A stretch of DNA of 64,000 nucleotides from Synechococcus sp. Its GTDB lineage: Bacteria; Cyanobacteriota; Cyanobacteriia; PCC-6307; Cyanobiaceae. Shown piece after piece: positions 41,971 through 46,905 of the stretch. The translations under genes were made by a program, and so were the position numbers. Positions within the stretch are counted from its first letter, which is position 1, and the number at the start of each line of letters is the position of its first letter. Below the pieces are notes generated by a model. It was not told where the DNA came from and made no database searches. It worked only from the letters and a program-made list of their open reading frames with translations. The stretch is from assembly GCA_047284725.1 (NCBI GenBank), contig JBJBEO010000001.1:1112203-1176202 (forward strand), in the 5' to 3' direction.

Positions 41971-42101
41971 ATTTTTTCTTTCTATTTTGTTGAAAGCTGC
42001 CCCGCAGTGGCAGGCAGAGAGTTTGTAGTGGCGAAGGAAGAAGATTATTGTTGGTGGTCTGCCTACTTGAAGGACTTGTTCGATGCCCATAAAGGCTAGG
42101 G

Positions 42102-42419
42102 CTAGATCTCGCCATCGACTAAGAAGAGGCGCCTCTGAAACCCGCCTCGCGTTTCGGCCTTTTGCCTTCGCACGACCTCAAGCTCCTCCAAGGTATGGCC
42201 CTTGGCCACGCAGAGAGCGCGGATGACTTCAAGGGTGTCTGCCAACTCCTGAATGTCGCCACTACTCTCGGAAACCTCGGTGACCTCTTCGTGGAGTTTT
42301 GCAATGAGTTGTGCCACGTATTCGTCGTCGCGCAACTCCCGGACGGTGCATGCCTTTCCGGCAGCTTCCATGACCTCAGGGATTCGGTCGCGGACAAGCT
42401 TGTTGTAGGTCTTTCGCAT
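42102..42419 (-). CDS. MazG-like all-alpha NTP pyrophosphohydrolase
   Basis: YNKLVRDRIP, EEVTE...ELAD, RGGF. Confidence 0.9.
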   Translation of the reverse strand: MRKTYNKLVRDRIPEVMEAAGKACTVRELRDDEYVAQLIAKLHEEVTEVSESSGDIQELADTLEVIRALCVAKGHTLEELEVVRRQKAETRGGFQRRLFLVDGEI

Positions 42420-42427
42420 CTAGAGGC

Positions 42428-43462
42428 TTACAGCAGGGAGTTGGCGACAAATGAGTTCGCTGGTCGCCAGCGACTTGGTATCGCGTTGATAGCGAGCTGG
42501 TCGCATTGCTGAAGGAAGCTCGCGCGTTTCTGCTTGGTGGCACCGGTCTGCGCAATCAGCGTCTCGCGGAGTGGGTGGTGGCTGTCTATGAGCCAGTTGT
42601 TCCTCACGTTCAGGCGCTCAAGGTACTCGATGTGTGGGATGAGGTCGAATTTTCCACCTGGGCCACGGTTGCACTCTGTGCAGGCCAGAACGAGGTTCCA
42701 TACACCGTCGATATTCAAGCCACAAAACGGCTCGGCATGGTCGAGTCGCTTGGGGAAAAAGTGGTCGACATCGGCGTCCAACGTCTCACTACGGTCGATG
42801 GTGATTGGTTGATGGCAATAGAAACATGTGCCTTTCTGATACCCGTTTAAAGCATCGCGCACTCCGGCTATTGACACCCGACGAGTTGCGTCAGTCGCGA
42901 TGAAAAGCTCGCCAATCTCAATGTCTGTTCTTACTTCCAACACGCGCGAAGGCACTCCAAGGTTCCAGGCCGTCTCAACTAGACGCCATCGTGCTTCCGC
43001 CTCTAGCGCCAAGCTGTTGGCCTGCGTGTCCGCCATGAGTCGTCGAAACTCTTCAGTGAGCCGGATTCCTTTGGCTGTCGCACGCTCGTCGTGGAAGAAC
43101 CGAATTGGTACATCTGAAGAGCCGACGATGTGAAATGCATCGATGACATTGTTGAAGCCACGCCTGACGGTCTCCATGCGTAGTTGATCGGCTGAGAGTT
43201 CGCCGCGGTTGAAGTTGCGACAGGCGTCGAGAAACACGCTTGAGCGCGAGGTCGCTTGTCGATCCGCGGAATTGAGGTGTCGGGCGATCTCCCGAGCGAA
43301 AGGTACCGCGAGATCATCAAGGCGGACGAGGTCATCGGTTGCTGGGGCGAGCTCAACCAACGAGCGAGCGAGGGCAAACTTGTATGACGCGACGTTTCGA
43401 CCAAAAAGGACGATCGCCCGCCAGCAGGATGCGGGATTCGGCTTGCTCTCAATGAATGTCGT
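42428..43462 (-). CDS. HNH endonuclease (canonical start missing; ACG at 43462, first TTG at 43360)
   Basis: in-frame WRAIVLFGRNVASYKFALA upstream of the called start; CFYC, VDHFFP, WNLVLACTECN. Confidence 0.85.
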   Translation of the reverse strand, partial: TTFIESKPNPASCWRAIVLFGRNVASYKFALARSLVELAPATDDLVRLDDLAVPFAREIARHLNSADRQATSRSSVFLDACRNFNRGELSADQLRMETVRRGFNNVIDAFHIVGSSDVPIRFFHDERATAKGIRLTEEFRRLMADTQANSLALEAEARWRLVETAWNLGVPSRVLEVRTDIEIGELFIATDATRRVSIAGVRDALNGYQKGTCFYCHQPITIDRSETLDADVDHFFPKRLDHAEPFCGLNIDGVWNLVLACTECNRGPGGKFDLIPHIEYLERLNVRNNWLIDSHHPLRETLIAQTGATKQKRASFLQQCDQLAINAIPSRWRPANSFVANSLL

Positions 43463-43515
43463 GGTCGAGGCGCTTCGGATGCACCCCGATTCTACTTAAG
43501 CCGCTTTCTCGATGC

Positions 43516-43596
43516 TTCTAACGCCCAAGCTGTGCGGCGCAAACGAAGCGCAGCGTAGTTTGCGTCCGAACGAGCGGAACGAGCGCCTTGTTAGCT
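43516..43596 (-). repeat. attC site
   Basis: minus strand AGCTAAC...GTTAGAA with inner IR GCAAACTACGC/GCTTCGTTTGC; contains the upstream gene's stop. Confidence 0.88.
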
Positions 43597-44438
43597 ATTT
43601 TTGAATACATGATTTCGATGGTGCTCCATATAACCCATTAATCTGCTTGGCACCTTCCTCAATTTGAGATTGCCAGCCAATCCAAGTTTTCAATGTCATC
43701 TTGTGATAGTTGAGGGGAAATCATTGCTATACCGGCTTCATCGAATGTGATTAGTCCCAAATCAAACAAGTGATCTAATGTGGGTTGCAATAACAGCCCA
43801 TTCATTGGGTCAAGACGCTCTTGATTGGATGAATCTCTCCACGGTTTGATATGCGAGGCTCGAACCACAGAGAGATTGCCTAACCCAGTAACTGAGCAAC
43901 TTCCCCATACTTCAACTACACCATCCCTGAACAAGCCCTGCCCGATGCGACTCTTTACGATTGATTTTTTTTCAGTTTGATCTAGCGATTTGAATTCATC
44001 CTTGTGCGCTTCGATATCGTCAAACATGTCTGGACGTTGACTTTTGTTCCCGACCGAAAACACAAATTGACTGGGTGACGAGCTAAGGCGGCGATGTTCT
44101 TTTAGATGAATCTGTCCGCAATACACAAATGGCGTATGATGAATGTCTCGATAAAAGAGGTGTATTTCATCATTCACAGACTCTGCATTGATCACTCTGT
44201 TGTCTGATGAATGCTTTTCTTCGCCTTCTCAGTGAAGCAGCTCGCCGTCTAAATAATCATTGTATTGAGTTAGTGCTTCTTGTTTTTGTTTTGTGACAAA
44301 CAGGATGATGTATTTAGTTCCTGATGGCGTTACAACGCCCCTGGAAATAGCCTGAAACCCTTTGTAGCCCCAAATATCAGCCAGGGATGGCCGCTCATAT
44401 TCTTGCCCAATTTTCAGTTTTTCAAGGCTGACTGGCAC
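43591..44438 (-). pseudogene. N-terminal domain + HNH endonuclease cassette gene, disrupted
   Basis: in-frame TGA at 44229-44231; RIGQGLFR, ASHIKPW, NGLLL..LDHLFDLGLITF; frameshift near 43688 restores YMEHHRNHVF and a stop inside the attC. Confidence 0.85.
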
Positions 44439-44454: not shown

Positions 44455-44612
44455 GGCTAACAGTGTTTCGGCGGACAGTAGAAGTTGCTAATAGTTGATT
44501 TTTTGCTGCATAAGCTGGCAATGGCAGCTTTCCCCCAAGATCAACACCCCAGCTCTAGCAACAATTTTAGCGGATTCCACTCCTCGCATGGATTGTTATG
44601 CGGACCGCAAAA
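44455..44612 (-). repeat. 158-bp attI-like element, copy B
   Basis: ends in GTTAGCC just before a cassette; end-to-end similarity to 45215-45372. Confidence 0.65.
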
Positions 44613-44707
44613 GCTCTTCAACGCTTGGTTGCTTAGCTGAAGGCCATAATCCTTATGGAGACCATTTCAAGTCATTCATATGGGGCGATTGTTGGTCGCT
44701 TAATGGT

Positions 44708-45214: not shown

Positions 45215-45372
45215 ACATAACAGTCTTACGGCGGTCCGCACAAGCTGCCGCCAGGCAGCTTATGCGGCAAAAAAATCCGTTTGAATCACCTCTCAGGAAC
45301 CAATTACCTACTTTTAGCAAGACCACCGCACCCCATCCAAGCCCGGCTTGGTTTGTTACCAGGACCGCAAAA
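45215..45372 (-). repeat. 158-bp putative attI platform, copy A
   Basis: starts 11 bp after the intI stop and ends at G/TTATGT of the first cassette; contains hairpin 45236-45267. Confidence 0.65.
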
Positions 45373-45383
45373 CATCCTCGGGT

Positions 45384-46358
45384 TCAGAGCAAGTCCGCGG
45401 GACTGCGGACGACTGATGGACCGCGATTCAGCACATGGGTGTAGATCATCGTGGTCTTCACATCGCTGTGACCCAGCAGCTCTTGAATCATGCGGATGTC
45501 GGCTCCCTGCTCCAGCAGGTGTGTGGCAAACGAATGGCGGAAGGTGTGGCAGGTGGCTGGCTTGCTGATCCCCGCCGCCTGCACGGCAGCACGCACGGCC
45601 CGCTGTACCAGGCTCGGATCCAGGTGGTGTCTCCCCTCCAGTCTCTGCCGGGGACTCCGCCAACGGCGGCATTAGGGAAACAGCCATTGCCAGGCCCATT
45701 CCCTCGCCGCATTTCGGTATTTCTTCTCCAGGGCATGGGGGAGCTCCACCGCACCCCAACCCGCTGCCAGATCGGCCTGGTGCACACTCCTCACGTGCTG
45801 CAGGTGCCGTTGCAAGGGCTCCACCAGGCTCGAGGGAAGCACGGTGCGCCGGTCCTTGCCTCCTTTGCCGCAGCGCACCGTGATGCAGCACTTCTCCAGG
45901 TCCACATCCTTGATCCGCAGCCTTAGCGCCTCCATCAGCCTCAGTGCACTTCCATAGAGAAGCTGGGCCACCAGGGCCTCGGCTCCGCCCAGATGGCCAA
46001 GCACGGCCTTTACTTCATCCACCGTCATCACCACGGGAAGGCGCGCCCGTCTGCGGGCTCGGATCACACCCTCCAGGTTCCCCACATCACCACCCAGCAC
46101 CGTGCGATAGAGAAACAGCAAGGCCGCCAGCGCTTGGTTCTGCGTGGAGGCACTCACTCTCTCCTCTGTCGCCAGATGACTCAGGAACGCATTGATCTCT
46201 GCCTCCCCCATCTCACGCGGATGACGCATCCGTTGAAAGCGCAGGAATCTCCGCAGCCAGTGCTCATAGCTCGACACTGTCCGGCGTGCGTAGTGCCTCA
46301 CCTGCAGCTCTTCCCGGTAGCGCTGGATCAGGCCCGGCGGCTGGTTCGGGTTGGCCAT
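45384..46358 (-). pseudogene. intI: integron integrase with single in-frame TAA (45672-45674)
   Basis: SASTQNQAL, LYGSALRLMEA, GKGGKDR, IntI insert [49 protein letters not shown]; both ORFs in the same frame. Confidence 0.95.
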
Positions 46359-46510: not shown

Positions 46511-46905
46511 CATTGCCATTCCCATTCACGCTCGGCTGGGGTATTGGCGACCTAACGCATCGGCAATCAGGACCTGCCCCCAACCGGCCTTTCGATCACG
46601 CTGGTGAAACTTGCGAACATCACTTAGATGGCGTGCCAGTGCTGGGAACATGCTTTGTGGCAAGAGCGTCAGTCGATCCTTCCCCCCTTTGCCATCGCGC
46701 ACGCAGAGCTCTCGCCGCTCGATGCTGATGTCTTTGACGCGCAGGCTTAAGGCCTCCATCAAGCGCAACGCACTGCCGTTCAGCAATCCCACCACCAGCC
46801 TTGGTGAACCCTGCAGTGTCGCGTTCGAGCCCGGATGACGGAATCCAACACCAAGGGTTTGCCGAGCAGTTCGCGATCGAGAAACAGCACTGCAACTGGA
46901 TTGGG
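46511..46905 (-). pseudogene. intI: degraded second integron-integrase fragment
   Basis: LFLDRELL..VIRAR / GSALRLMEALSLRVKD, GKGGKDR, GWGQV, REWEWQ across several frames. Confidence 0.85.

Follow-up and report, generated by a model that had tools for sequence, protein, structure and literature searches.

A two-gene integron cassette of a Synechococcus with an HNH nuclease gene and a MazG-like gene: a candidate modification-dependent restriction module

Why would a gene for an HNH nuclease and a gene for a small nucleotide-hydrolysing enzyme travel together on one integron cassette? This question was raised by a stretch of 64,000 nucleotides from Synechococcus sp. (assembly GCA_047284725.1, contig JBJBEO010000001.1, positions 1,112,203 to 1,176,202 of the forward strand; hereafter the window), on the minus strand of which an integron integrase gene is followed downstream by a cassette array in the same orientation. 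In the third cassette of the array, about 1.9 kb from the integrase match, an HNH endonuclease gene is followed 8 bp downstream by a gene for a 105-aa MazG-like protein. An original prediction, made from the sequence alone, had taken this pair for a candidate anti-phage module coupling DNA cleavage to the removal of modified deoxynucleoside triphosphates (dNTPs). We read the cassette, at about an even chance of being right, as a two-component type IV-like restriction module with an accessory that destroys non-canonical nucleotides, because the MazG-like family recurs beside modification-dependent restriction enzymes and because both the architecture of the HNH protein and its gene neighbourhood fit such an enzyme.

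The cassette and its two proteins

The extent of the cassette (Table 1) was defined by alignment with two relatives, Synechococcus sp. CCY 9618 (L001) and Cyanobium sp. BSA11S (L002), which were 90% and 87% identical to it, respectively. In both, homology began at the GTTA core, with the cassette junction, G|TT, falling at 43522|43521, and ended about 109 bp past the second gene; the flanks in the window, L001 and L002 were unrelated. Because the homology spans exactly both genes and the flanks do not match, the two genes lie in one mobile cassette with no attC between them, as originally proposed. Several other features that the prediction had listed were likewise recovered, namely the GTTAGAA R' site ahead of the HNH gene, the residues EEVTE...ELAD in the downstream frame, and a GC content (0.54-0.59 over 42000-43599) above that of the flanking cassettes (0.37-0.46), the chromosome being at about 0.6. 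The element thus has what marks an integron cassette: a GTTRRRY-bounded unit with its own 3' attC, recurring in different contexts and placed in an array beside an integrase gene.

The HNH frame ends with TAA at 42430-42428 and encodes about 344 aa when counted from the ACG at 43462-43460; it carries FGRNVASYKFALA and the predicted motifs CFYC, DH and CTECN. Pfam HNH_4 was matched by a narrow margin (22.7 bits; cut-off 22), and phrog_338 was matched over nearly the full length (7e-15). Among 59 sequences, the motif CxxC...DH...N...CxxCN was invariant (C213-C216, D233-H234, N256, C261-C264 and N265). The catalytic DH, the Asn residues and the two CxxC pairs, together with the fold matches to Cas9 and McrA, place the protein among the His-Me finger/HNH nucleases. 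The family is compact (about 340 aa) and large, with more than 5000 representatives of 90%-identity clusters at E <=0.001 (8000 candidates scored) and 416 representatives at 50% identity at E <=1e-30 among 1.84 billion. Members from different phyla share about 55% identity, and both halves of the protein hold many invariant residues.

An AlphaFold2 (AF2) model of the HNH protein (pLDDT 88.6, pTM 0.85) had two domains. The HNH domain, at about residues 182-330, matched the HNH domains of Cas9, McrA (EcoKMcrA) and Cap5 with Z scores of 4.7-7.2. The N-terminal domain, at about 6-165, matched winged-helix domains (Cdc6, Z 8.4) as well as sulfur-binding domains (SBDs) that act as readers in the type IV enzymes Hga (7.8), ScoMcrA (7.4) and SprMcrA (6.7) over 115-123 aligned residues; in all, four SBD entries were found at Z 6.7-7.8, and Cdc6-type winged helices scored equally high. 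Foldseek with the same model recovered the HNH part only. Fusions of the HNH protein with a partner were sought among the longer family members and none was found, which is weak evidence; two long representatives (P0344 and P0361) had unstructured-looking N-terminal extensions devoid of a partner domain.

The 105-aa frame runs from ATG 42419 to TAG 42104-42102. Its metal-binding motif, E44 E45 xx E48 ... E58 xx D61, had all five residues invariant in 56 sequences, and EExxE...ExxD is the defining motif of the all-alpha nucleoside triphosphate (NTP) pyrophosphohydrolase superfamily. The window protein itself had no match in Pfam or NCBIfam at E <=0.1 and none in PADLOC or PHROGs; a homologue from Brevibacillus fluminis (L047) passed Pfam PRA-PH (1.5e-6, 29 bits; cut-off 21.3), and a profile search of the PDB gave a weak HisE match (E 0.34). 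There were 831 homologues at E <=0.001 among 852 candidates, some of which are named 'house-cleaning noncanonical NTP pyrophosphatase (MazG superfamily)' by JGI. The AF2 model (pLDDT 95.3) was helical and formed a four-helix bundle. Its top Foldseek row was the integron protein iMazG (probability 0.99-1.00, TM 0.50/0.65), and further rows were MazG, DR2231, HisE and DCTPP1 (probability up to 1.00; E weak, 0.2-1.5). The label MazG-like is therefore supported indirectly, through family, fold and motif, and the protein is predicted from its sequence and model to convert NTP to NMP and pyrophosphate.

Among the three cassette copies, dN/dS was 0.14-0.19 for the HNH gene and 0.28-0.58 for the MazG-like gene, indicating purifying selection.

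Partners and neighbours of the two families

HNH loci were compared using the best 80 of 368 confirmed matches on contigs of one genome per species. A small partner gene lay within 500 bp of the HNH gene at 68 of the 80 loci: an S-adenosylmethionine (SAM) methyltransferase at 51, a histidine triad (HIT) protein at 13, a MazG-like protein at 3 and both HIT and MazG-like proteins at 1. Several of the 12 partnerless loci were on short contigs; at one partnerless locus a Nudix gene lay at a distance of two genes, and a Fic gene was present at another. Most partners were on the same strand as the HNH gene, and many abutted or overlapped it. On the HNH tree (82 rows), partner type changed at least 17 times (shuffled mean 29.1), so partners have been swapped repeatedly, and the MazG-linked HNH proteins formed one starred clade in picocyanobacteria and another, separate from it, in Bacillota. 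Judged from these gene arrangements, what is conserved is an HNH gene accompanied by any one of several small enzymes that replace one another, most often the methyltransferase.

The partner methyltransferase is a class I SAM enzyme of about 200 aa, closest to RPA2492 (uncharacterised, 2e-37) and then to small-molecule methyltransferases. For the HIT partner, the nearest relatives are Fhit, Ap4A-phosphorylase and Hint proteins. A link to MADS was considered and rejected: the methyltransferase matched PADLOC 'mad2' at 5e-19, but its PDB relatives were small-molecule enzymes, and the consensus of 30 partner methyltransferases had no DPPY/NPPY-type motif, which is the mark of N6-adenine DNA methyltransferases and the absence of which counts against such a link.

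The HNH and MazG-like genes were paired in both gene orders and at spacings of 8-31 bp. Beyond cyanobacteria, the pair was found in Paenibacillus, a further Bacilli genome (L094), Brevibacillus and a Bacillus cereus plasmid (L118), on which the pyrophosphohydrolase gene comes first and the HNH gene follows; this plasmid was the 1 record examined of 18 Bacillus records among 28 plasmid matches. There, the pair lies between genes annotated as 'DNA/RNA helicase domain-containing', with a small 'GTP pyrophosphokinase' gene downstream. At the Brevibacillus fluminis locus (L047, 3219-3903), the HIT and MazG-like genes are divergent from the HNH gene; it is the sole locus with two partner types. A second pair in Paenibacillus nuruki (L087/L088, contig 55) has both the HNH and the MazG-like gene fragmented. 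A phage origin was rejected, as 50,697 phage records held only 2 partial matches and a viral contig collection 6 loci; 4 of those 6 had a methyltransferase partner.

The HNH genes lie in a defence-island context. Among open reading frames (ORFs) of at least 220 aa within 4 kb of the HNH gene, taken from 36 of the 80 loci after duplicates of L018, partner methyltransferases and some edge-cut ORFs had been dropped, 36 of 114 matched PADLOC models at <=1e-10, and these came from 23 of the 36 loci. Many of the matches were near full length, and they included BrxL, ZorD, DruE, HamB, NsnA/B, Mokosh and type IV restriction endonucleases, as well as NERD-helicases, HEC-05 and several PDC candidates. 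At two loci (L012 and L031), a methyltransferase-HNH pair adjoined a full-length SauUSI-like gene.

The MazG-like family leads to the same class of enzymes by another route. In Bacilli, a MazG-like gene of the COG4997 type lay directly upstream of, and abutting, a SauUSI-like type IV gene (PDLC03658/03659) at 22 of 29 loci, and these SauUSI-linked genes belong to the same family as the 105-aa protein of the window (A4 profile, E ~1e-36 to 1e-40). One of the Bacilli genomes (L091, within L089-L117) carries the MazG-like/SauUSI-like pair in tandem copies. The linkage itself is already known and unexplained: Xu et al. 2011 (PMC3141236) reported a conserved pyrophosphohydrolase gene as linked to at least 60 SauUSI-like enzymes, with the comment that its 'function remains to be examined', and a figure legend in PMC7641849 gives the same linkage. 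Going by gene neighbourhood, the MazG-like family repeatedly accompanies modification-dependent restriction enzymes as an accessory.

How the pair may act and how else it could be explained

No named system could be assigned to the pair, in keeping with the original prediction. PADLOC v2.0.0 had no model for it and returned motif-only matches of the HNH protein to PtuB, Cas9 and PDC-M01B and none for the 105-aa protein. The HNH family with its partners was not described in the literature found, in a search outside of which lay subscription journals and the newer models of DefenseFinder. In a close parallel, SauUSI-type restriction, a modification-dependent nuclease gene is, as here, tightly linked to a gene for a small NTP pyrophosphohydrolase of the same family. 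The SauUSI-type nuclease, however, is a PLD-helicase-DUF3427 protein of about 950 aa, whereas the window encodes a winged-helix (wH)-HNH protein of 344 aa whose modification dependence we infer; moreover, the HNH gene here comes first, reversing the gene order, and the unit travels as an integron cassette. The phosphorothioate-dependent type IV enzymes of the SBD-HNH type (SprMcrA, ScoMcrA and EcoWI) share with the window protein an N-terminal winged-helix-type reader, a C-terminal HNH domain and the zinc-ribbon CxxC pair, but they have no sequence-level match to it and are described as solitary, whereas the window family is nearly always partnered.

On the side of the small enzyme, iMazG of the Vibrio DAT722 integron (PDB 2q9l, 2q73 and 2q5z) is likewise a small all-alpha NTP pyrophosphohydrolase on an integron cassette and was the best structural match to the 105-aa model, with a root-mean-square deviation of 2.0-2.8 over 74-79 residues, although at only 23-26% identity. 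It is presented as a lone cassette function, and a nuclease is not mentioned in the table row on it (PMC3856429). A survey of His-Me finger proteins defined a 'group 23' of unannotated bacterial HNH-fold proteins of unknown function beside MazG family genes (Jablonska et al. 2017, PMC5714182). This group was neither matched to the window HNH family nor excluded, as the text of the paper gives no accession; it is said to have no Pfam entry (PMC5714182), whereas the window HNH protein just passes HNH_4. The likeness to Septu PtuB, the HNH protein of retron Ec78 and the Cas9 HNH domain is that of the HNH catalytic core, about 60-90 residues at E 1e-6 or weaker, and Septu differs further in that the window locus has no PtuA-type ATPase partner.

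In the type IV-like reading, the HNH protein would be the effector, with the winged-helix-like N-terminal reader directing the Cas9/McrA-type HNH domain to DNA that is non-canonical in some feature, for instance in a modified base or backbone. As the accessory, the 105-aa enzyme would convert the matching non-canonical (d)NTP to its monophosphate. Modified nucleotides that are salvaged, or made by a phage, would thereby be kept out of host DNA, and self-restriction would be avoided; the mammalian relative DCTPP1 clears 5-methyl-dCTP for a comparable reason. The accessory may also starve phages that build their DNA from modified nucleotides. The originally invoked argument that cyanophages manipulate nucleotide pools found no support in our analysis. 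In other lineages, the accessory role would fall to a small SAM methyltransferase, a HIT hydrolase or perhaps a Nudix enzyme.

Several observations weigh against this reading. The form with a MazG-like partner is rare, being found at 4 among 80 HNH loci and at 2 among 30 MazG-like loci, and the commonest partner, a methyltransferase of the small-molecule type, has no obvious fit to pool cleaning, which is the weakest point. The proposed coupling of DNA cleavage to modified-dNTP removal gained from the SauUSI-like linkage, and the pair itself proved to be a minority form; the expectation that the two genes would be conserved together near defence genes was borne out in that the pair recurs and that defence matches occur at HNH loci, and was not borne out in frequency. 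The 23 of 36 loci with defence matches stand without a neutral background, for the intended control, MazG-like genes away from HNH genes, proved to be defence-linked itself (28 of 43 ORFs from 28 loci matching PADLOC). The Z values of the reader domain are middling (7-8) and may reflect a common structural arrangement; Pfam and NCBIfam searches gave no match to the SBD families PF26340 and NF045808, and hhalign against an NF045808-like SBD enzyme gave a weak HNH alignment but none for the N-terminal part. A protein-atlas search pointed weakly to PF26340 (score 0.77). Because the Z values are middling, a sequence-level link is absent and the atlas pointer is weak, we call the modelled domain a winged-helix-type reader and not an SBD. 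Furthermore, the MazG-like gene is less constrained than the HNH gene, and L002, like the window copy, is without a canonical HNH start. Modification-only cleavage by the HNH protein is read from architecture and context; we also infer the substrate of the pyrophosphohydrolase and the logic of self-protection, and nuclease activity and phage protection are predictions from sequence and model.

Could the partners serve a different end? The HNH protein might be a toxin switched on by a nucleotide-like small molecule during infection or stress, with the partner (MazG-like, HIT, methyltransferase or Nudix) acting as an enzymatic antidote that keeps this ligand low; the outcome would then be abortive infection and not restriction. 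Three to four unrelated folds of nucleotide or small-molecule enzymes do interchange beside a conserved HNH protein, as would be expected if all removed one ligand, the conservation of the N-terminal domain (about 55% across phyla, with many invariant polar residues) is unusual in a reader of DNA sequence, and a modified mononucleotide is shown to act as a defence trigger in a recent preprint (10.64898/2026.01.15.699771). We nevertheless consider such a ligand-gated toxin unlikely, in that the N-terminal domain resembles a nucleic-acid-binding winged helix and not a known sensor of small ligands, the MazG-like family also accompanies the DNA-modification-dependent SauUSI-like enzymes, and fused sensor-partner forms were looked for and none was found. 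Less probable still is that the two genes are unrelated passengers captured by chance, the one a house-cleaning MazG-like enzyme like Vibrio iMazG and the other a selfish or solitary HNH gene. In its favour, a solitary MazG cassette of a Vibrio integron has measured dNTP pyrophosphohydrolase activity (PMC3856429), and 108 of 301 Bacilli genomes have MazG-like genes, for the most part with no such HNH gene. However, at least two separate HNH clades contain the pair, in either gene order and at short spacings; a small partner stands beside most HNH genes; most of the seemingly stand-alone MazG-like genes are operon partners of another restriction enzyme; and the decayed second Paenibacillus pair lost both genes together.

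The type IV-like reading can be extended beyond this cassette, although we do so tentatively and regard the extension as rather doubtful: wH-HNH proteins with their interchangeable partners (SAM methyltransferase, HIT, MazG-like and perhaps Nudix) may make up a class of type IV systems, widespread and as yet undescribed, in which the accessory polices the nucleotide pool. The accessory would then inactivate modified nucleotides that are freed when foreign DNA is restricted or degraded, before salvage brings them into the chromosome and directs the nuclease at its own host. In a more specific form, which would fit an SBD-like reader, thio-nucleotides would be what the accessory keeps in check. 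Nucleoside phosphorothioates are desulfurated by HIT enzymes, TPMT/TehB-like enzymes place methyl groups on sulfur, and dNTP-alpha-S could be a substrate that a MazG-like enzyme hydrolyses.

The usual view of type IV restriction enzymes is that a single gene makes up the system and that the host needs no protection from it. That the HNH family is almost never partnerless suggests a hidden cost of modification-dependent restriction, namely contamination of the cell's own DNA via salvage. The MazG-like company of SauUSI-like enzymes points the same way and would suggest a general solution to this cost. If true, the pool-policing class would explain the SauUSI-linked pyrophosphohydrolase, unexplained since 2011; that loose end becomes testable, and the cassette offers a small, portable two-gene module for the purpose. 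If the partner merely starves phages of modified dNTPs, the pair would still be a compact two-pronged defence. The cassette adds a picocyanobacterial example to the evidence for defence genes on integron cassettes.

State of the module in this genome and its surroundings

The original prediction had remarked that the HNH frame lacks a canonical start, with ACG at 43462, and might be silenced; the first part was borne out by the sequence. From the in-frame TAA that closes the frame upstream (Table 1), no ATG, GTG or TTG occurs before TTG 43360, the first canonical start, and initiation there would cost invariant N-terminal residues. The likely lost start is a GGG codon at which L001 has GTG, and the metagenomic protein P0121 starts with V at the aligned residue. 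Logan contigs of two runs, possibly from the source sample, were identical to the window in the start region. Within the HNH gene, Logan contigs X1 and X3 differed from the window at 42530 (C>T) and 42676 (C>G, both on the plus strand).

The recombination signals have also decayed. The cassette's own attC in L001 is canonical (TCTAAC...GTTAGA), with a folding energy of -22.8 kcal/mol (z -3.6) that 1 of 200 shuffles equalled. In the window, mutations affect both core sites, R'' being TCGAAC (42083-42078) against TCTAAC and R' being TTT against GTT, and the stem is lost (-8 kcal/mol, z +0.25). The integrase gene intI is split by one in-frame TAA at 45674-45672, and a whole-genome search likewise returned it with '1 TAA'. 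With the HNH start codon gone, a degraded attC and a broken intI, the module in this genome is probably inactive or weakly expressed.

Table 1. Positions of the cassette features in the window
Feature	Positions	Strand	Basis or detail
Two-gene cassette	41995..43521	-	1527 bp; nucleotide identity to relatives over exactly this span
Cassette's own attC, degraded	41993..42085	-	Alignment to L001 and folding
All-alpha NTP pyrophosphohydrolase (MazG/HisE superfamily, COG4997-like)	42102..42419	-	Family, fold, motif
8-bp spacer between HNH and MazG-like genes	42420..42427	-	Sequence
HNH endonuclease frame	42428..43495	-	Open frame; Pfam HNH_4, phrog_338, family alignment, model
GGG codon, likely lost start	43484..43486	-	L001 GTG there; alignments
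In-frame TAA closing HNH frame upstream	43496..43498	-	Relatives read TCA or TCG there
attC of preceding cassette	43516..43595	-	R'' GCTAAC 43595-43590; R' GTTAGAA 43522-43516
Integron integrase gene intI	45384..46358	-	TIGR02249; N part 1.8e-86, C part 2.9e-44

A stronger form of this conclusion, compatible with the readings discussed above, is that the HNH protein is no longer translated here and that at most the MazG-like protein is made. The missing start, the stop in place of the relatives' serine codons, the attC that no longer folds, the nonsense codon in intI and an in-frame stop in the nuclease gene of the neighbouring cassette all favour such a fossil. Set against them, the frame shows no other damage in 355 codons and keeps every invariant residue, and its low dN/dS includes the part upstream of TTG 43360, where 102 nt held 3-4 synonymous against 1-2 non-synonymous changes. 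Given this low dN/dS against relatives, either any loss is recent or a weak non-canonical start is in use; L002 is conserved without a canonical start, so that initiation at ATC/ATT or read-in from upstream is possible. On balance, we place complete loss of HNH translation a little short of an even chance.

The preceding cassette (43659-44438, minus strand) holds one frame that is cut by an in-frame TGA at 44231-44229. The upstream part is weakly DUF3427-like and the downstream part is an HNH_2 nuclease (PADLOC 'HNH', 2e-25); from its sequence, the frame looks like a broken modification-dependent restriction gene. The attC of this cassette folded only moderately on the bottom strand (-15.8 kcal/mol, z -1.1). 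The co-orientation of intI with its cassettes corresponds to the 'inverted' layout, and a second, partial integron-integrase-like stretch (46529-46819, minus strand, or 1158731-1159021 on the contig; model positions 113-209) lies just upstream of intI. Finally, a 44-nt direct repeat of 73% identity, possibly attI- or attC-related, is present between cassettes at 44576-44619 and just past the intI stop at 45336-45379.

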